From the NCBI GenBank assembly GCA_902535055.1, contig CACASI010000001.1, positions 53,427 through 117,426 of the forward strand: a stretch of DNA of 64,000 nt, read 5' to 3'. The notes below the pieces were generated by a model that had not been told where the DNA came from, ran no database searches, and saw only the letters and a list, made by a program, of their open reading frames with translations. The DNA comes from an uncultured Candidatus Actinomarina sp. (lineage in GTDB: Bacteria; Actinomycetota; Acidimicrobiia; Actinomarinales; Actinomarinaceae). This document shows, one piece after another, positions 5,362 through 52,965 of the stretch (the stretch's first letter is position 1; every line of letters starts with the position of its first letter). The translations under genes and the position numbers were made by a program.

Positions 5362-7521
5362 TTAATTACCTGGATTAACTCTTTGAACATCAAATACATT
5401 TTCAATATTTTTGGCATCAGTAATTATTGAATCGAGTTGTTCATTACCACTTATTTCTACTTGGAATAACAAAGTTACAATACGTTTGCTGTTGGTAAGT
5501 GATTTAGCTACAAGAATATTACCGCCATTATCAGATATTGCTATAGTTGCATCTCTCAGAAGATAAGGCCTATCTATCGCTTCAATTTCTAACCATACTA
5601 TAGAACCAGATTGTGCATTGAATCCCCAGCTAACATCAATAATTCTTTCACCTCTTGAACTATCGATTTTTATATTTAAACAATCAGATCTATGAATAGA
5701 TATACCATTTGAAATCGTAATAAATCCAAGAATATCATCACCAGGAACAGGAACACAACATCTTGCCATACGTACTTTGATATCATCGTATCCTTCGACA
5801 ATTACTAATTTATCGTCTGTTGTCTGGTATTTATCGGGAGACAGAATATCTTCTTCTTCAGTAATTTCTTCAGGAAATACAAATTTACGAATTTTATTAC
5901 CTACATTTGCGATTTTTATATTACCGTTACCAAGATTTTGATAAATCGTTTCATAGTTTGGATATTTTAAAATGTTTAGTAGTTCGATTAAAATTGTTTC
6001 TTTGTCTGAGTAGTTAAAAATTTCATCATTTTCTTCTAGCCATGTATTGAGAATTTGTTTTCCTTTTTGTATATCTTCATCTTTTAGCTGTTTTTGATAC
6101 CATTGTTTAATTTTAGATCTAGCACGAGAGGTTTTAACAAAAGATAACCAATCTCTGCTTGGACCTTTACTATTTTCATTGGTTGTTAATACTTCAATCG
6201 TATCTCCTGTTGATAATGTGGTGCTTAAATTCACTAGTTTTCCATTAATTTTTGCACCAATAAGTTTTTCACCAACTTGAGTATGTACAGAAAATGCAAA
6301 ATCTACAGGTGTTGATCCTTGCGGTAATGTAATTACATCTCCTTTTGGTGTTAAACAAAATACTTCGTCTTCATAAAGATCAAATTTCATGTGATTTAAA
6401 AATTCATTTGGGTCAGGATATTCGGCAGTTAAATCAGATAAATCAGAAGCCCATTTTTGAACGTCATTTTGAGGTTTTTCTTTATATTTCCAGTGAGCAG
6501 CTACCCCATATTCTGCTCTGTAATGCATATCATGAGTTCTAATTTGTATTTCCATTTTTTGACCTGTTTCAGTCAAAACAGTCGTATGAAGACTCTGATA
6601 TAAATTAAATTTGGGCATAGAAATAAAATCTTTAAATCTACCTAATACGGGTTGAAAATTAGCATGTATCAGTCCTAATATTGTGTAACAATTTTTAACA
6701 TCATCCGTAAGTATCCTTAAACCTACTAGGTCATTAATTTCATTAAATGATAATCCATTATTTATTATTTTCTTATAAATTGAATAGTTGTGTTTTGGAC
6801 GTCCAATAACTTCAGCCGATAAAGAATTGTCTGATAAAAGTTTATCGATAACTTTTACAGATTTTTTAATATTTTTATCTCTATTGGGAGCAGATTTCTC
6901 AATTAAACTTTCAATTTCCAAGTTTTGATTTTTATGTAAAAGTCCAAAGGAGACGTCTTCTAATATATGTTTTATATTTTGTAGCCCGAGTCTATGAGCT
7001 AACGGTGCATACACATAAAGTGTTTCACTTGCTATTCGTTCTTGTTTGTGATCTGCCAAATATTTTATTGTTTGAATATTATGGAGTCTATCAGCAAGTT
7101 TTAAGATAAGGACTCTTATGTCTTTAGACATCGCAATTACCATTTTTCTGATAGCTTCAGCTTTTGCTTCTTCGTTTGTGTTGTATTGAATCCTGTCTAG
7201 CTTCGTTACTCCATCTACAATATTTGCTACATCAGATCCAAATTCTTTTTTAATGTTTTTATACGTTATATCAGTATCTTCAATAAGGTCATGTAAAATA
7301 GCAGCAATTATTGTTTCTAAATCCATACTTAAATCTGACAAGTAAAGGGCTACTTGTAAGGGATGAGTAATATATGGTTCACCAGAAGCCCTCTTCTGGT
7401 TCATATGTCCATCGGAAGCAAAATTATATGCTTTTTCTAACAGATCTTTATCATCAATAAATTTTGAACTTAAGTCGTTAAATAGCTCATCAGCACTTAA
7501 GATATCTGGATTTTTAACCAT
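5362..7521 (-). CDS. rel: bifunctional (p)ppGpp synthetase/hydrolase Rel (RelA/SpoT family)
   Basis: 719 aa with an HD hydrolase motif (HDLIEDT), a synthetase domain (GRPKHNYSIYKK..., RILTDD), and TGS and ACT-like C-terminal regions. Confidence 0.9.
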   Translation of the reverse strand: MVKNPDILSADELFNDLSSKFIDDKDLLEKAYNFASDGHMNQKRASGEPYITHPLQVALYLSDLSMDLETIIAAILHDLIEDTDITYKNIKKEFGSDVANIVDGVTKLDRIQYNTNEEAKAEAIRKMVIAMSKDIRVLILKLADRLHNIQTIKYLADHKQERIASETLYVYAPLAHRLGLQNIKHILEDVSFGLLHKNQNLEIESLIEKSAPNRDKNIKKSVKVIDKLLSDNSLSAEVIGRPKHNYSIYKKIINNGLSFNEINDLVGLRILTDDVKNCYTILGLIHANFQPVLGRFKDFISMPKFNLYQSLHTTVLTETGQKMEIQIRTHDMHYRAEYGVAAHWKYKEKPQNDVQKWASDLSDLTAEYPDPNEFLNHMKFDLYEDEVFCLTPKGDVITLPQGSTPVDFAFSVHTQVGEKLIGAKINGKLVNLSTTLSTGDTIEVLTTNENSKGPSRDWLSFVKTSRARSKIKQWYQKQLKDEDIQKGKQILNTWLEENDEIFNYSDKETILIELLNILKYPNYETIYQNLGNGNIKIANVGNKIRKFVFPEEITEEEDILSPDKYQTTDDKLVIVEGYDDIKVRMARCCVPVPGDDILGFITISNGISIHRSDCLNIKIDSSRGERIIDVSWGFNAQSGSIVWLEIEAIDRPYLLRDATIAISDNGGNILVAKSLTNSKRIVTLLFQVEISGNEQLDSIITDAKNIENVFDVQRVNPGN

Positions 7522-46780: not shown

Positions 46781-47653
46781 TTATTTAAATATTTTCATCA
46801 TCAATACAGGTGTATTTGCTTTGTACTCTTGATAATCAGATAACTCACCATATCGTTCATCAGCAATACGCTCTAACATAGGAACTCCTTCTGCTTTTCT
46901 CAAGAGTAAGTAAACAAACAGTGGAGATACTACTGCTGTGACATATTCAATACCAGATAAAGAACTAAGAGATATTACAGCCATACCTACCCAAAGCGTT
47001 ATCTCACCAAAATAGTTTGGATGACGAGATCTTGCCCAGAGACCAGTTGATATAAACTCTGTTTTAGGATCTGAAGTCTCCCTAAATTTTCTCTTTTGAT
47101 AATCTGATATAACTTCAATTAAAAATCCCGACCACCATAAAAATATTCCAATAAAAGCAAGAGCTTCTAATTCAGCTTCAACGGGAGAAAGAATAGCAAG
47201 TATAGAAGCCCCAGCTGAAAAGACTACCCATGCAGCTTGACCCATCCAATATTGAAGAAACCAAAAGAATTTTTTCTTCGCTTTATCAAATCTCTCATCC
47301 TTGCCGTCTTTGTTAATTCTCCTAAATAGAAATATTCCAAGCCTTCCAGCCCAGACTATGACATAGAGATAAAGTATCGTATCAATTGTTGATGGGTTAT
47401 CTAGGGAGAAATACGCAATACTTGTTACTGATATATAAGTGAGACTTCCTGTAAGATCATAAAATTTCTCGGTCTGAAATAAGAATGATGGAAGAAATAT
47501 TAAAAATTGAATCAAGACTGCCATAGATATCAAAAATTTAAATGAATTGAAACCAAGAATCTCTGTTTCAATATTGTTTGCAGTAAAGCTATACAAATAT
47601 ATTGCAAGCAAAGTTAAAGATACGTTTATGATATTTTGTGTTTGTTTAACCAT
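46781..47653 (-). CDS. DUF1295 / steroid 5-alpha-reductase-like membrane protein
   Basis: 290 aa polytopic protein with the C-terminal motif GLWARSRHPNYFGE that is diagnostic of this family. Confidence 0.65.
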   Translation of the reverse strand: MVKQTQNIINVSLTLLAIYLYSFTANNIETEILGFNSFKFLISMAVLIQFLIFLPSFLFQTEKFYDLTGSLTYISVTSIAYFSLDNPSTIDTILYLYVIVWAGRLGIFLFRRINKDGKDERFDKAKKKFFWFLQYWMGQAAWVVFSAGASILAILSPVEAELEALAFIGIFLWWSGFLIEVISDYQKRKFRETSDPKTEFISTGLWARSRHPNYFGEITLWVGMAVISLSSLSGIEYVTAVVSPLFVYLLLRKAEGVPMLERIADERYGELSDYQEYKANTPVLMMKIFK

Positions 47654-47654
47654 T

Positions 47655-48029
47655 ATGAATTATTATAAGCAGATGGATGATTACATTATTAAAAGATTCG
47701 AAAACCCTGATGAGGTCAGAGAGTTTGATAAAGGGAAATATGAGGTAGTCAACTTACCACATATGACCATAGGCAAAGCAACATACCATAAAGGATGGAA
47801 ATGGTCTGATGACGTCTCTCCCCTTTCTGGTACAGAATTTTGTGAGACTGAGCATCTAGGTATGGTTATTAGTGGTAATGCCACTGTTGCATTTGAAAAT
47901 GAAGAGCCAAAAGTTATTGGCCCTGGAGATATATTCTACGTATCAAATACACCCCACGACAGTTGGGTTGTTGGAGATGAAGACTATGTATCCATTCATT
48001 TTATGGGTGCAGAAAAATATGCTGATTAA
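47655..48029 (+). CDS. cupin-domain protein
   Basis: The cupin_2-like core is GMVISGNATVAF...GPGDIFYV..TPHD...V. The start was moved to the internal ATG (MNYYKQ) to avoid overlapping the convergent gene. Confidence 0.55.
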   Translation: MNYYKQMDDYIIKRFENPDEVREFDKGKYEVVNLPHMTIGKATYHKGWKWSDDVSPLSGTEFCETEHLGMVISGNATVAFENEEPKVIGPGDIFYVSNTPHDSWVVGDEDYVSIHFMGAEKYAD

Positions 48030-48092
48030 CCATAAGTCAAAATAATAGATAGATCCGTCATCACGTAGAACATTTAATTAGACTCGACTTAT

Positions 48093-48680
48093 ATGATTAA
48101 AAAATATTTATTTATACCCTTAGTTTTGCTTATTTCATTATGTGGTGGTGAAGCTGATAATGCTGAGGTTGTAGAGACAACTGAGAATACTGTAAATACT
48201 AATGTTGAGCAACCAACTGTAGATCTATTAGTTTCTGTTCAAGATAATGATTTAAATACTGTTAATCAACATATTGCTTATGGATCAGATCTAAACGTAC
48301 AAGATGGAACGTTTTCAAATACTCCCCTAAATTTTGCAGGTATTTATGGATTAACAGAAATTGCTGAAGTTCTTGTTGATGCCGGCGCAGATCTAAACCT
48401 AGTAAACGCTGACAACTTTACTCCACTATGTAATGCAGCAGCTTGGGGGCATACAGATGTGGTCACTATACTTCTTGATGCAGGTGCTGATATATCAGCA
48501 AAGTGTTTTGAAACACAAATTGGACTTTCCGTAGCTGTAGCAATAGCTATCAGTGCTCCATATTCAGATTATATAAAAGCACTGTATGTCGATCATGGAG
48601 AAAAATATAATATTCCTTATGACGAAGCAAAAATTATTGCAGGTAGAGAAAAAGTTACAGAGCTGCTCAGTAGTAGGTAA
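48093..48680 (+). CDS. ankyrin-repeat lipoprotein
   Basis: 195 aa with a lipoprotein signal (LISLCGG) and at least three ANK repeats (TPLNFAGIYGLTEIAEVLVDAGADLNL, TPLCNAAAWGHTDVVTILLDAGADIS). Confidence 0.75.
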   Translation: MIKKYLFIPLVLLISLCGGEADNAEVVETTENTVNTNVEQPTVDLLVSVQDNDLNTVNQHIAYGSDLNVQDGTFSNTPLNFAGIYGLTEIAEVLVDAGADLNLVNADNFTPLCNAAAWGHTDVVTILLDAGADISAKCFETQIGLSVAVAIAISAPYSDYIKALYVDHGEKYNIPYDEAKIIAGREKVTELLSSR

Positions 48681-48706
48681 ATATGTTCAAAATTAAATTT
48701 GAAAAT

Positions 48707-49855
48707 TTATTTTGATAATAAAATTGCCATTATCTGATCTTCAGGAAGGTCTAAAAATTCATAAAATTCATTAAGGTAAGTCTTGTAATCTTTTTCAAAT
48801 TGTATTTCAAATGATTTTTCAAACCCAAATTCTTCATACAAAGAATAAATATCCAAGATTTTATCTTCTCCGTGTTCGTTTACAAGATAAGCTATAAACC
48901 AAGCTCCAATTTCATAAGCAATTTGTTTATCGACAGGTTCAGGATTTCCACTAAATGTTATATTATTTAGTTTTACACCAGATTCTTTAAAAATCTCTAA
49001 TCTACTTTTATTACCATATCTGTCTTTTTCACACAGTAATGCACAATACATTTGATCCTTAAACCAACTCATGTCATTGATTGTCCTTGCATAATCTATG
49101 TAACTGAAATAAACAGCCGCACCTTCGTTCCACCATGGAACATCGTCTTCAGGATTATCTCCCGAAAATCTACCATTGAGCATTCTTTGCCCGTCGTAAC
49201 TATCAGTTGAATAATGCGAAGTTTGAAATATGTGAAACATTTCATGTAATGTAACATATCCCATCGATGATGCATGTTGAGGCAAGTCGTGTGTCCTGCT
49301 AATGAATAAATTGTATCCATCTCTTTGAGGTATGCTGCTTATTGCAGAACCAGCAACACCACCATTAGGCTCAACAAATAAACCATTACGTTCATATTCT
49401 TCCCTCGAATCTTCATTATCACCACATCTACTACTGTCATAACCGTCCTGTATAAATAGTTTTTTGTGCTCTTCTTCTAAAAATTCACAATAAACAGGTT
49501 CTAGTGCCAGTGCAGATTCTGGATTGTTTTTGTCAAGTTGTACAAGGTAAATAGGATATAAATTTTCAATAACTACATTCGGTTGACTAAAGTATAGTTC
49601 TTCCGATATTGCAACCCACTCTTTTAACATTTCTTGATGGTCATTTGAAACTGATTCTGCAATAAAATATATAATTTTACGATTATCAAGAGAAGAGGTT
49701 GTAGAATTTTCTTCATCATTAGGCGTTACAGAAGTAGACTCATTTGAAATTTCTTCATCCGGTAAAATTGTTTCATCAGATATATTAGAACTATCAGAAT
49801 CCAAACTACAAAATGTGACTGTTAAAGAAAAGATGAGAATAAAATAATTTTTCAT
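48707..49855 (-). CDS. secreted HExxH zinc metallopeptidase-like lipoprotein, paralog of 40973..42124
   Basis: 382 aa with a signal and Cys (TFCSLD) and an acidic Ser/Thr linker. It has HEMFH and a downstream WWNEGAAV motif that aligns with HEVTH...WLNEGIAH of the paralog. Confidence 0.55.
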   Translation of the reverse strand: MKNYFILIFSLTVTFCSLDSDSSNISDETILPDEEISNESTSVTPNDEENSTTSSLDNRKIIYFIAESVSNDHQEMLKEWVAISEELYFSQPNVVIENLYPIYLVQLDKNNPESALALEPVYCEFLEEEHKKLFIQDGYDSSRCGDNEDSREEYERNGLFVEPNGGVAGSAISSIPQRDGYNLFISRTHDLPQHASSMGYVTLHEMFHIFQTSHYSTDSYDGQRMLNGRFSGDNPEDDVPWWNEGAAVYFSYIDYARTINDMSWFKDQMYCALLCEKDRYGNKSRLEIFKESGVKLNNITFSGNPEPVDKQIAYEIGAWFIAYLVNEHGEDKILDIYSLYEEFGFEKSFEIQFEKDYKTYLNEFYEFLDLPEDQIMAILLSK

Positions 49856-49871
49856 AAATTAATAATAATCT

Positions 49872-49921
49872 TCAAAATAAATTTGTGGGAGATACAAGAT
49901 TTGAACTTGTGACATCTACCG
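49872..49921. repeat. distal direct repeat (attR-like): duplicated 3' 47 nt of tRNA-Val plus 3 nt of flank
   Basis: 49872..49921 is identical to 52847..52896 except for one mismatch (g versus t). It covers the T-arm, acceptor 3' strand and 3' anticodon-stem portion of the tRNA. Confidence 0.8.
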
Positions 49922-49980
49922 TGTCGAGGTAAATTTAAGTTCAATTATTTTAAGCTATATCAGATAATTTAATGAAATTT

Positions 49981-50016
49981 GTTTCCCATGTTTCCCATGT
50001 TTCCCATGTTTCCCAT
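49981..50016. repeat. perfect tandem repeat (GTTTCCCAT)x4
   Basis: It can be read directly in the sequence and is followed by the degenerate GTTTACC. The track ORF 49972..50193 (..SHVSHVSHVSHV..) is just this repeat translated. Confidence 0.9.
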
Positions 50017-50029
50017 GTTTACCAGAAAA

Positions 50030-50051
50030 ATGGTACACAAATGGTACACAA
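50030..50051. repeat. tandem 11-mer ATGGTACACAA x2 (iteron-like); a third copy lies at 52763..52773
   Basis: ATGGTACACAAATGGTACACAA is at the left end of the islet. ATGGTACACAA followed by the degenerate ACGACACACAA is at 52763..52785 near the right end, in the same orientation. Confidence 0.8.
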
Positions 50052-50053
50052 AA

Positions 50054-51406
50054 CTAATCTAATGAAAAAAGTTTTTCTAACTCATTTGCAAGAAAATCTA
50101 GTTTTAAATCTGTTGCTTCAAACTTTTTATAGTCAAAATTACACGCATCCCAAAGTATCGGGAAATCAAGTATTTCAGAATAATCTTGATTAAATGAATT
50201 CAGTTTTAAAACAACACTCTCATCGAGTCCATTCACTTTTCTATAATCAAAATCATTGTTATAAATAGCATAAAGTACAGCTAAATCGATTGGCTGTAAA
50301 GTAATAAATTGATCTTCTTGATATGACGTACTCACAATAGAATCAGAACAATTGTTATGATTTAAACCAAATGCATGAGCTAGTTCATGAATTAAAATAT
50401 GTTCACCTAAATTACTGTCTTCATCAACCCATATAACACCATGATTTGGTTTGATTTTATTATCGTTAAAAGTAGATCGATAATATCCAATAAACTCATC
50501 ACAAGAAAGTGTTGGAGATGAGTCAACGCATAAAGATTTATGTATATAAAGCGTCCCCTCATCTTGATCTGTTGCAAAATTAATTTCGAGATCAGGAGCT
50601 ACATCTTTCATCATATCAATAAACAATGCAACAGCAGTTAACTCACTATCTGTGAAATCTCCAAAGAAAACAAGGTTTACAGGAGATAATAATTTATGGT
50701 GATTGTATCTTGTCCACTCTAGATTTTCTTGATCCCAATCGTAAATCGATAAAAATAATGCTTTATCCGAAACTTTAGCATATGAATTAAAATTGTCTAT
50801 GGATAGCTGGTTACTTAATTGAACATAATCAAAAAATTTATTTTCTACAGAAAGATCTTTAAAGTACCACTCAGGGACAACTGATTCATTTATATTTACA
50901 AAATATCTTGATGAATCATCGTGAATTTCAGTTTCGTAATCTCTAAAGAGGTTTGCACCACATACATCATTATTTATAAATTTCACATAAAGTGATAATG
51001 AAAAAGTTATTTCGCTAGAACCAGAATATGTATTTAAAGGCATAGTAAAAGGGTTACTAATTGTGTGAACTCTATTTTTGGTTGATAAATAAACTGGTTT
51101 GATAAAGTGATAATCTAAACCAAGAGTGTAATTTGTATTTTTGTCAGCAAAATCAAAATTAAGAAATATCTGCTTTATTCCATCATCTTCTGGAAATTTA
51201 TTAAATACAATATAAAAATTATTAAATTCTTCACTAAATTTATATTCAATTTTATCAGTAAGTGAATAACAATAAGAATCAACAACAAGTTGGAAGCTTT
51301 CCTCTTTCATTTTCGTAGCTTTATTGTCTGCATCGATTACTAATGATAAAAATGACACCGAGAATAAATATATAATTAAAAATGATAAGTCTGTTATATT
51401 TCGCAT
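50054..51406 (-). CDS. secreted metzincin-type zinc metalloprotease
   Basis: 450 aa with an N-terminal signal/anchor. It has the HExxHxxGxxH motif (HELAHAFGLNH) characteristic of metzincins (matrixin/astacin-like). Confidence 0.6.
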   Translation of the reverse strand: MRNITDLSFLIIYLFSVSFLSLVIDADNKATKMKEESFQLVVDSYCYSLTDKIEYKFSEEFNNFYIVFNKFPEDDGIKQIFLNFDFADKNTNYTLGLDYHFIKPVYLSTKNRVHTISNPFTMPLNTYSGSSEITFSLSLYVKFINNDVCGANLFRDYETEIHDDSSRYFVNINESVVPEWYFKDLSVENKFFDYVQLSNQLSIDNFNSYAKVSDKALFLSIYDWDQENLEWTRYNHHKLLSPVNLVFFGDFTDSELTAVALFIDMMKDVAPDLEINFATDQDEGTLYIHKSLCVDSSPTLSCDEFIGYYRSTFNDNKIKPNHGVIWVDEDSNLGEHILIHELAHAFGLNHNNCSDSIVSTSYQEDQFITLQPIDLAVLYAIYNNDFDYRKVNGLDESVVLKLNSFNQDYSEILDFPILWDACNFDYKKFEATDLKLDFLANELEKLFSLD

Positions 51407-51459
51407 AATTTATTAAACAAAAGCAGAGTAAATTATTACCCTGCTTTTGTACCGCTTAA

Positions 51460-52635
51460 TTAGGAGTTTTTTCCTAGCCAATAATTCCATTTAAGAGCAA
51501 CGTTACTCCATACAAATGAATCTTTTCCAACTTCTGTAATTGATTCCCTCTGAGACACTGCCTCATTTATGGTTTCAATAATTTCATAGCCATATTCATC
51601 CCAGGCTTTTTTCATTGTTTGAAAATCAAAAAGGCCCTTCTCTTCGAATATTCTAAAGCTTGAAAGAGATGGCAATAAAGCACCTCTATTCAAAGTATTA
51701 GTTGGTTTTCCGTATTTATCTACAACCATAGTTTCTTTAAAGGATTCAGAAATTCTTAAACTTCCAAACCTTCCACCATTTTCGTTATAGATCTGTTCTG
51801 CCGTGCACAACATGTAATCACGTATAGCCAATATATTTTTTAATTTTGTTTTTGTGACTTGGAATTTTATTTTTCCTTCATCCGTAGCAAACATATTAAC
51901 TAATGAAGACTTAGATGAATATGGTCTAGTCAACAATTTGTCAGTGCTTCCAGATGGAAACATGTCACTGTTAGTTGCCCATAGATATCCAAGTAAATCT
52001 CTACTGTCTATAGCAAATAAAGTTTTATCATCATCTTTATATTCATTTTGCCTAAATTGAATACTGTCTTTCCATGTTTCTGGAAGTTTAGATATGATAT
52101 CACTAAATTCATTTCTCATATGAAGCAATGTTTCTTTAGTAACACTTACAGATGAATTTTGACCTTCAGCAATAGCTGCAATGGATTCTCTGTCTTTTAT
52201 TCCACCAAAAAATCGAACAATAACTTGTTGATTAGACAACTCTTGTTCTGGAGATTTTCCAGCATCATTCATTGCATCACAGACTTCTCTGATAGCTCTA
52301 TATGTGTGTGCACCATTTAATACACCATTAAGATCATCTGGTTCTTCACTCAGTTCGATAGTAATTGGTTTTGTGGTGTCTTTATCAAGCAATACACTTA
52401 AACAATTAATGGTTATACCTTGGTTTTTATACCTAAATAATCCATCATTGCTTTCTAATGATTCCTTAATCCCTTTAGTAACTGCATTTGTCATTTTCTG
52501 ATGTCTTGGATTAGCATCAGTTGATATTTCTGGTGCTCTCCATAAATCAGAAACATTAACAATAGCAGTATGTTCTCTTTTTTTAGGATCATTTGAGTCA
52601 GGATGACTCTTTATAGTTTGAATATATAATTTCAT
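51460..52635 (-). CDS. orphan hypothetical protein carried by the islet
   Basis: About 391 aa from the internal ATG (the track ORF starts at an upstream GTG, 52668). There is no signal peptide, P-loop or tyrosine/serine-recombinase motif. It has a weak DGQHR/ParB-like segment (VLNGAHTYRAI). The upstream region contains the ATGGTACACAA repeat. Confidence 0.4.
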   Translation of the reverse strand: MKLYIQTIKSHPDSNDPKKREHTAIVNVSDLWRAPEISTDANPRHQKMTNAVTKGIKESLESNDGLFRYKNQGITINCLSVLLDKDTTKPITIELSEEPDDLNGVLNGAHTYRAIREVCDAMNDAGKSPEQELSNQQVIVRFFGGIKDRESIAAIAEGQNSSVSVTKETLLHMRNEFSDIISKLPETWKDSIQFRQNEYKDDDKTLFAIDSRDLLGYLWATNSDMFPSGSTDKLLTRPYSSKSSLVNMFATDEGKIKFQVTKTKLKNILAIRDYMLCTAEQIYNENGGRFGSLRISESFKETMVVDKYGKPTNTLNRGALLPSLSSFRIFEEKGLFDFQTMKKAWDEYGYEIIETINEAVSQRESITEVGKDSFVWSNVALKWNYWLGKNS

Positions 52636-52849
52636 ATATATCTCTCTTTCTGTGGACTTTCGCCGCACTATTTTTTTAATGTGACATTTCTGCGCACATA
52701 GTGATTTTTACAAATTGCAAAAATCTTAATTATTATACCATAAATTTAAAGAAAAATCGAAAATGGTACACAAACGACACACAAATTAGATAATAAAAAT
52801 TTTAAATAAAAAGATTAGACATAAAAGCCTATGTTTTTTGATTATTTTG

Positions 52850-52922
52850 TGGGAGATACAAGATTTGAACTTGTGACATCTACCTTGTCGAGGTAGCGCT
52901 CTGCCAGACTGAGCTAATCTCC
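52850..52922 (-). tRNA. tRNA-Val (anticodon GAC)
   Basis: The cloverleaf has acceptor GGGAGAU/AUCUCCC, D-arm GCUC/GAGC, anticodon stem CUACC/GGUAG with loop UCGACAA, and T-arm ACAAG-UUCAAAU-CUUGU. CCA is not encoded. Position 33 appears to be C rather than U. Confidence 0.8.
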
Positions 52923-52965
52923 CGTATAAAAAAATATAGCAGTATAAATACGATTTGTAGAATAA

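Follow-up and report, generated by a model that had tools for sequence, protein, structure and literature searches.

The attP of phage lambda carries, in addition to its core, the arm-type sites P1, P2 and P'1-P'3 and the Xis sites X1, X1.5 and X2. The mycobacteriophage L5, an actinobacterial temperate phage, uses a tRNA 3' end as its core and encodes Int and Xis (gp36); both arms of its attP have multiple arm-type sites, several tandem Xis sites separate these from the core, and related phages carry a WhiB-type gene. The cis-mobilisable elements (CIMEs) that accompany the integrative and conjugative elements (ICEs) of streptococci have lost the integration and transfer genes and keep attL and attR (PMC5704250). 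Here we analyse a 64-kb stretch of a Candidatus Actinomarina genome (the window), in which an islet of approximately 3 kb (49881-52895) is inserted precisely in the 3' end of the gene for tRNA-Val(GAC) and has short tandem repeats near both of its ends. We consider it probable that integration has split a lambda-type attachment site into attL and attR, that the repeats form its protein-binding arms, and that the islet is a 3-kb non-autonomous cassette, the attP of which is collinear with those of Actinomarina phages and the integrase of which is supplied in trans.

Three earlier reports concern this type of locus. Mizuno et al. (2013) described part of a phage genome that encodes an integrase and WhiB and contains a 43-bp att, which is identical to the Actinomarina tRNA-Val (PMC3861242). 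Lopez-Perez et al. (2020) found Actinomarinales to be essentially free of mobile elements and described cassettes bounded by tRNA direct repeats ('additive' flexible islands), with transfer between species or genera; tRNA-Val is mentioned only for a 24-kb prophage (PMC7771536). A 2026 preprint describes a tRNA-bounded hypervariable region, the integration mechanism of which is still to be identified (bioRxiv 10.64898/2026.04.03.716425). The islet resembles the cassettes of PMC7771536 in that it comes from the same organisms, is small and sits at a tRNA gene with a partial tRNA duplicate. Neither PMC7771536 nor the preprint names a recombinase or att arms, the word 'integrase' is absent from both, and arm repeats, or a connection between the cassettes and the integrases of phages, are described in none of the three reports.

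The boundaries assigned to the islet in the original prediction are real: a direct repeat of 51-55 nt (49877-49931 and 52841-52895, 95% identity) reproduces the 3' end of tRNA-Val(GAC). The core sequence of the tRNA includes TTGAACTTGTGAC, the core 35-mer occurs exactly twice in the window, and the attL core is also present in phage attP sites. The islet encodes only an abortive infection phage resistance (AIPR) protein and a Matrixin-like protease, both on the minus strand, and neither the list of open reading frames (ORFs) nor Pfam revealed a recombinase; tblastn with three integrases found no integrase in the whole window. The islet lacks integration and transfer genes, as expected of a CIME-like element, and has no integrase, replication or packaging-hijack gene of its own, such as phage satellites (phage-inducible chromosomal islands or P4-like elements) and tycheposons have. 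The AIPR protein has 402 residues when read from a GTG start, or 391 from the ATG at 52635 that is called in public assemblies, and the exact 391-residue product is found on five public contigs; the islet is present, for example, in the samples behind GCA_902518205.1, ERZ27286459 and ERZ839901. Searches of PADLOC, NCBIfam and PDB sequences with the 402-residue protein gave nothing beyond Pfam AIPR, an exact look-up of the 450-residue protease-like protein found no match on record, and an Rfam scan of the window detected three tRNAs only.

An exact word search of the window found all of the repeats where the original prediction had placed them (Table 1). The 9-nt array, which consists of four perfect copies of GTTTCCCAT and a degenerate fifth unit, GTTTACCAG, is the top-scoring tandem repeat of the window in TRF (49980-50024, period 9, 5.0 copies, 97% matches, score 83). 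The 11-mer ATGGTACACAA occurs exactly three times in the 64 kb, each time on the plus strand and within the arms, against 0.08 copies expected (100 shuffles, none of which reached three). When 1-2 mismatches were allowed, neither GTTTCCCAT nor ATGGTACACAA was enriched elsewhere in the window, and therefore neither is a common genomic word; the original prediction had stated that its reading would fail if the 11-mer proved to be one. The third copy is directly followed by ACGACACACAA, with which it belongs to a direct-repeat family (D7, 26 nt, 88%). An ORF of 73 residues (49972-50193), in which the 9-mers are read as VSH repeats, was not accepted as a coding sequence, since the 450-residue gene on the opposite strand overlaps it with its 3' end and the ORF aligns to non-coding phage attP arms.

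Phage relatives with an integrase gene were recovered by scanning metagenomes for attL-type junctions, in which the 3' part of the tRNA is followed by non-tRNA sequence. Two contigs, L157 and L158, have the same core and tandem 11-mers whose start, like that in the window, is approximately 130 nt away from the core anchor; next comes the gene for a tyrosine integrase of 522-526 residues (Pfam Phage_integrase, E=1.7e-12). The int-proximal 11-mers are GTGGCACATAT GTGGGGCATAT in L157 and ATGGCAGATAT GTGGCAGATAT in L158; to the left of the core are ATGGCACATAT, a 10-nt spacer, two copies of GTGGCACATAA and then a WhiB gene. Since the core, 11-mers on both sides and the integrase and WhiB genes occur together, we conclude that this site is a phage attP. 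The order of core, tandem 11-mers approximately 100 nt on and a tyrosine integrase gene (Pfam Phage_integrase) is seen in L157, L158, L163-L166, L175 and L176, and a contig of 26.5 kb, L160, represents a whole temperate phage, with genes for tail, holin, an HTH_17 excisionase-like protein (6918-7178; in L163, 6915-7154) and WhiB, then attP, int, HNH, terminase, portal, protease and capsid. Every attP examined has a tandem pair of 11-mers in direct orientation in each arm that its contig covers. For the four motif classes with both arms on the contig, the motif is equal in the two arms of each attP (for L171, only the int-proximal arm is available), and a matched, element-specific motif in both arms is likewise found in a second islet, L137. 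A motif that is the same in both arms and differs between phages marks, we suggest, a site recognised by a protein that the element itself encodes, namely an arm-type integrase site.

The repeats of the islet occupy positions that correspond to those of the phage arms (Table 1, counted from the anchor TTGAAC of the core). In a MAFFT alignment (A1), 175 nt of the left arm of the window align with six phage arms with gaps only in isolated single columns, and the ATnTTTC columns, which lie inside the 9-nt units, are invariant. The octamer directly before the 11-mers, CCAGAAAA, is identical in the window, L160 and L161, and reads TCAGAAAA in L172 and L173; the CTATATCAGATAATTTAATGAAAT block aligns in part with the phage attP arms. 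By this alignment and by the positions in Table 1, the islet keeps an attL and an attR that are related to those of an autonomous element. The view that matching terminal repeats are arm-type recombinase sites is thus supported by comparison of the sequences, since they align position for position with the arms of phage attP sites that share the tRNA-Val core, and the accompanying idea that a trans-acting factor may bind both ends fits the same reading. As in a lambda-type site, a core identical to the target is present as a direct repeat at both ends, and the arm repeats are unlike the core and share one motif between the two arms. A cognate tyrosine integrase beside the site, another mark of the lambda type, is absent from the islet and from the 64-kb window and present in the homologous phage attP.

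Table 1. Features of the islet, of the second islet and of the related phage loci. Locations are window positions unless a locus or the core anchor is named.
Feature	Location	Strand	Remarks
tRNA-Val(GAC), integration target (attB)	52849-52923	-	ARAGORN; Rfam tRNA 65.7 bits
attL core, partial duplicate of tRNA-Val 3' end	49881-49931	.	51 nt, 1 mismatch to the copy in the tRNA
attR core, repeat copy inside the intact tRNA gene	52845-52895	.	Direct repeat D1
Spacer block CTATATCAGATAATTTAATGAAAT	49955-49978	+	Between core and 9-mer array; 21/24 positions as in the L137 islet
9-nt-period array	49981-50025	+	GTTTCCCAT x4 (49981-50016) and degenerate GTTTACCAG (50017-50025); candidate accessory-protein (excisionase/recombination directionality factor) sites, int-proximal arm
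Tandem pair ATGGTACACAA ATGGTACACAA	50030-50051	+	Copies at 50030-50040 and 50041-50051; putative arm-type integrase sites, int-proximal arm (attL side)
Tandem pair ATGGTACACAA ACGACACACAA	52763-52784	+	ATGGTACACAA at 52763-52773, ACGACACACAA at 52774-52784; putative arm-type sites, int-distal arm (attR side), orientation as left pair
Cargo gene 1, 450-aa secreted Zn-metalloprotease-like protein	50054-51406	-	HELAHAFGLNH; Pfam Matrixin, E=7e-6
Cargo gene 2, AIPR	51460-52668	-	Pfam AIPR, E=5e-16
9-nt-period units, from anchor	Window islet +78..+124; phage attP +84..+114		Phage units of TATATTTCG type
Tandem 11-mer pair, int-proximal, from anchor	Window islet +125..+153; phage attP +126..+155
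Tandem 11-mer pair, int-distal, from anchor	Window islet -102..-80; phage attP -147..-120
Arm motif TGGTACACAA	Window islet
Arm motif TGGGAACGA	L137 islet
Arm motif TGGCACATAA	L157, L163-L166, L175, L176
Extra arm motif TGGCAGATAT	L158, L175, L176		Int-proximal arms
Arm motif TGACACGAAA	L160, L161, L172, L173
Arm motif TCTGTCACAAA	L168, L169
Arm motif TCATTCGCAAA	L170, L174, L178
Arm motif TCGCACATAA	L171
Phage-borne tRNA-Val(GAC)	L160 9503-9577; L168 1082-1155; L170 1352-1428; L172 169-245; L174 444-518; L175 186-260; L176 1527-1601

The homology to attP arms bears directly on two other functions that short tandem repeats could have. The original prediction had allowed for replication iterons. 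These would here belong to a small replicon, plasmid-like or a satellite, that had become part of the chromosome, and tandem direct repeats with periods of 9 and 11 nt are indeed iteron-like in form, as plasmid iterons are tandem direct repeats of approximately 9-11 nt or more. However, the islet has two ORFs only and no rep, primase or helicase gene, neither an AT-rich unwinding element nor DnaA boxes were identified, and the repeats are split between the two ends of the element, where they are homologous to attP arms beside integrase genes. We therefore give the iteron interpretation next to no weight.

The second possibility is that the 11-mers are operator or promoter elements for a regulator of an AIPR-protease operon, possibly the 402-residue protein of the islet itself, with the left copies serving as a downstream or roadblock site. 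The original prediction had suggested that this protein or a trans-acting factor binds both ends, and had placed the third ATGGTACACAA copy in the promoter region of the gene for the 402-residue protein. The right-hand pair does lie approximately 95-130 nt upstream of the AIPR start, and the int-proximal pair of the phages lies approximately 60-90 nt upstream of the int start, so that arm sites could also regulate. Nevertheless, we consider an operator highly improbable. Neither a recombinase domain nor any other domain recognised as DNA-binding is present in the AIPR protein, and in the integrase-bearing relatives the repeats are found beside the tyrosine integrase gene and never beside an AIPR gene, which speaks against binding by this protein. 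The left-end copies lie past the stop codon of the last gene. A promoter and terminator scan gave fewer promoter-like consensus sites than shuffled sequence and none linked to the repeats, and the upstream position of the third copy, like the architecture as a whole, is fully accounted for by homology to attP.

The attachment-site reading is joined by indirect evidence of movement from other Actinomarina genomes. A scan with the 3' half of the tRNA in one genome per species assigned the window to Candidatus Actinomarina and returned 18 loci. The islet in L001 (NCBI GCA_902518205.1) is 99.0-100% identical to that of the window, including the right-hand pair ATGGTACACAA ACGACACACAA, whereas the flank beyond the tRNA is only 79-93% identical (SRAP 88.8%, S51 peptidase 91.4%, dut 89.7%, 79% further out), and the step in identity falls exactly at the tRNA. 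The left flanks of the two are unrelated, with the gene for a 382-residue M9-like protease in the window and DsrE in L001. Empty sites with matching flanks occur in other Actinomarina species (L138 with the L001-type flank, L148 and L151 with that of the window). Since the islet is 99-100% identical between flanks of 79-93% identity, and empty sites exist, the islet is a mobile, integrase-less, CIME-like cassette that has recently spread horizontally. The second islet, which occurs in L137 and in the metagenomic L159, also occupies this tRNA; it is 1,481 bp long and has one esterase-like gene and no integrase. It has its own 11-nt-period repeat, two copies of TTTGGGAACGA at both ends, and shares the spacer block CTATATCAGAnAAnTnAATGAAAT with the islet of the window. 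The L137 and L159 copies are 96% identical against 78% in the flank, and L139, the flank of which is 99.3% identical to that of L159, has an empty site.

These comparisons also allow us to weigh two explanations in which no helper moves the islet. In the first, a phage of the same family integrated at tRNA-Val and an internal deletion, which took out the integrase and every phage gene, left two moron genes between inert att arms. The arms of the islet are homologous to phage attP, prophages at tRNA-Val exist (PMC7771536), CIMEs are by definition thought to arise through such decay (PMC5704250), and no cognate integrase was found, all of which would suit a prophage scar. A decaying prophage is in fact preserved in L162 (570-1548), where the attL core is cut after TGGGAGATACAAGA (14 nt) and fused in frame to approximately residue 212 of the integrase, with intact terminase, portal and capsid genes downstream. 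L162, however, has lost its arm and half of its integrase, whereas the islets keep both arms. Moreover, the islet of the window is 99-100% identical in two genomes with flanks that differ by 7-21% on one side and are unrelated on the left, and therefore it moved after taking its present form. A second islet with unrelated cargo shows the same pattern, with an empty site within the same species, and neither islet contains a phage gene fragment, the cargo genes adjoining the arms to within 3 nt. For these reasons, we regard a decayed prophage as unlikely.

In the second, cassettes are exchanged by homologous recombination on transformed or transduced fragments, with crossovers in the duplicated tRNA segment and in the tRNA or the right flank, and the repeats are incidental. 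Donor and recipient do not differ in the 51-nt repeat or in the 75-nt tRNA, either of which could serve as short homology, and Lopez-Perez et al. describe the swapping of tRNA cassettes without naming a recombinase (PMC7771536). The step in identity coincides exactly with the tRNA and the right flank contains no donor tract, which is difficult to reconcile with this scheme, as both crossovers would have to fall within approximately 50 nt and approximately 27-75 nt. It also leaves unexplained why two unrelated cassettes should each have complete attP-like arms with matched 11-mer pairs, and we consider it very unlikely. Most likely, a phage integrase encoded elsewhere was responsible both for the insertion of the islet at the tRNA gene and for its passage from species to species.

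The integrases beside the phage sites (P0001-P0017; e.g. L157 5118-6686) form a family of unusually large tyrosine integrases of 497-527 residues, of which only 17 clusters were found in 5.8 billion proteins; no close relative exists among 50,697 deposited phages. A search of viral contigs with a single integrase sequence found nothing, and an alignment-based search gave three loci. In the AlphaFold model of P0001, three beta strands and a helix make up each of two modules (residues ~10-76 and ~249-304), one N-terminal and one inserted before the catalytic domain, together with the core-binding and catalytic domains, which follow the two modules. Foldseek matches the model best to Tn1549 Int, to an integrase of S. 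aureus and to full-length lambda Int; the lambda Int structures 1Z1B, 1Z1G and 5J0N are among the matches. The N-terminal module has no Pfam match and the internal module has sub-threshold matches to Pfam AP2 (E=1.4e-4 and 4.6e-3). An arm-binding role for the extra modules, which the model suggests, is plausible rather than established.

We propose the following mechanism. The two ends of the islet, joined through the 51-nt core, would rebuild an attP collinear with that of temperate Actinomarina phages. The ATGGTACACAA copies, two in the int-proximal arm and one with its degenerate partner in the int-distal arm, all in direct orientation, would be bound by the arm-binding module of a cognate integrase acting in trans. 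By analogy with known attachment sites, the 9-nt array (GTTTCCCAT x4-5) between the core and the int-proximal 11-mers most likely binds a directionality or bending protein, for example the HTH_17 excisionase-like protein of the phage; binding by a second DNA-binding module of the integrase is less likely. With the accessory protein bound to the 9-nt array, the phage integrase would release the islet as a 2.96-kb circle with a complete attP, which it could then reinsert at tRNA-Val. Transfer between cells could plausibly occur when a helper phage integrates in tandem next to the islet and the two are excised and packaged together; tandem accretion followed by co-excision is a known route for CIME-ICE tandems (PMC5704250).

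Several observations weigh against this scheme. The int-distal arm is less collinear with the phages than the int-proximal arm, its 11-mer pair being closer to the core, and it lacks a third, upstream site that the phage arms have. Pattern and integrase searches of metagenomes and viral sequences found no integrase or phage with ATGGTACACAA arms, and the helper is therefore hypothetical; ten further integrase loci all have other arm motifs, and a pattern of the core with the CTATATCAGA block had no match in metagenomes or viral contigs. The arm-binding nature of the extra modules relies on a model of medium confidence (pLDDT 74.6) and sub-threshold Pfam matches. The role given to the 9-mer array is by analogy, and its four perfect units, where those of the phages are imperfect, could reflect recent slippage rather than selection. 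Finally, movement by a helper is read from the identity steps of both islets and from the empty sites, with neither a circle junction nor a helper observed.

Compared with lambda, the islet and the phage attP have a core shared with the bacterial target and arm-type repeats, unlike the core, on both arms; the phage attP also has a tandem array of approximately 11-bp period near int and a tyrosine recombinase, and by analogy the 9-nt units would be a separate tandem array of accessory sites between core and arm sites. Here, however, integration takes place in a tRNA 3' end, the identity block being approximately 43-51 nt long, the array of accessory type belongs to the int-proximal arm whereas that of lambda is on the distal arm, the integrases have approximately 500-527 residues with two extra beta-rich modules, and the window has no int. 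With L5, the Actinomarina phages share an actinobacterial host, a tRNA 3' end as core, arm-type sites in both arms, a tandem array between the core and the arm-type sites that would correspond to the Xis sites, and WhiB. L5 differs in that its integrase belongs to another lineage, and the islet has neither int nor xis.

The islet resembles CIMEs in that its att sites are akin to those of an autonomous element, in that genes for recombination and transfer are missing and in its location in a tRNA 3' end; by analogy, its mobility would depend on a helper integrase, with tandem accretion as the known route. It differs from the streptococcal CIMEs in that the autonomous relatives are temperate phages rather than ICEs, the cassettes are of 1.5-3 kb with one or two cargo genes, and mobilisation in trans is deduced from patterns of identity. 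With the tycheposons of Prochlorococcus (bioRxiv 10.1101/2020.12.28.424599), it shares a streamlined marine host, cargo and defence genes brought to tRNA islands by tyrosine-recombinase elements (for the islet, putatively so), stacked insertions with partial tRNAs between them, and remnants. Tycheposons, however, have their own recombinase and replication genes, neither of which is present in the islet, and the arms of the islet match phage attP.

Other features of these loci deserve mention. A complete tRNA-Val(GAC) gene lies directly beside the int-distal arm of attP in seven of nine phage loci of the integrase family, and is a spare copy of the very tRNA species that is targeted. The metagenome contigs L155 and L156 carry a different element, with a 34-nt match to the 3' part of tRNA-Val and a 396-residue tyrosine integrase; ATPase-like genes were seen, two in L156 and one in L155. 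It was ruled out as a possible helper, as neither the 11-mer nor the 9-mer is present, and may represent a second kind of integrative element that competes for tRNA-Val.

Searches of viral contigs with the repeats alone yielded no further relatives among the matches listed. The exact 22-mer of the ATGGTACACAA pair occurs in a family of high-GC phage contigs in unrelated context, which we judge to be coincidence. In this phage family (L016, L030, L031, L034, L047 and L056, which come from metagenome 3300045988, and others in IMG/VR), ATGGTACACAA is present in two to three exact copies in tandem, with ATGTCCCACAA and ATGCCCCCCAG on their flanks, at an intergenic position just past a GC-rich hairpin. 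The family is unrelated to the Actinomarina element, and the ATGGTACACAA copies may be its own repeat-binding site. Pairs of 9-mers gave 13 matches in viral contigs, none with the 11-mer or the core, and the pattern TGGTACACAA-N(0-30)-TGGTACACAA was discarded as too loose, with coding repeats among the matches listed.

The stretch downstream of tRNA-Val (46781-49855 in the window; L137-L154) is an additive hot spot. In many species, a conserved gene of 290 codons lies approximately 380 nt from tRNA-Val, and in other species the space between them holds cupin, cupin and Ank, additionally DsrE, and additionally an M9-like protease (duplicated in L151); L152 has a second Ank and a 693-residue protein as well. 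No direct repeats survive around these inserts. In the window, the two neighbouring cassettes both encode secreted Zn-metalloprotease-like proteins (48707-49855, 382 residues, HEMFH; and the 450-residue cargo protein, HELAH), which belong to unrelated sequence families (weak M9 match and Matrixin, respectively). The esterase-like lipoprotein gene of the second islet (L137 3917-5398; L159 1867-3085) has 51.6% GC in a genome and flank of 32% GC and therefore comes from a distant donor.

As principles, neither arm-type sites nor CIME-like elements are new, being textbook matter or already known. Actinomarina, SAR11 and Prochlorococcus are streamlined marine bacteria that gain and lose small gene cassettes linked to tRNAs, and the repeats described here provide a concrete and testable mechanism for the integration of such cassettes: those with full phage-type att arms are, we suggest, open to insertion, excision and carriage by temperate-phage integrases that act in trans. 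The comparison also defines the attP architecture for a barely known family of large tyrosine integrases, and the core, the 9-nt array and the 11-mer pair are sequence signatures with which further cassettes can be sought. In the islet of the window, an anti-phage (AIPR) gene rides on a cassette that would itself depend on phage machinery. More speculatively, the tRNA cassettes of Actinomarina might form a distinct class of 'detachable morons', with phage integrases serving as a communal, integron-like recombinase and the 9-nt array forming a second class of arm site, read by the second, AP2-like module of an unusual integrase that has two arm-binding modules, an idea that we put forward as doubtful. 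If true, cargo-only cassettes with complete phage-type att arms would be shuttled between species by temperate-phage integrases, and a communal phage recombinase would serve a host that has otherwise been described as without mobile elements.

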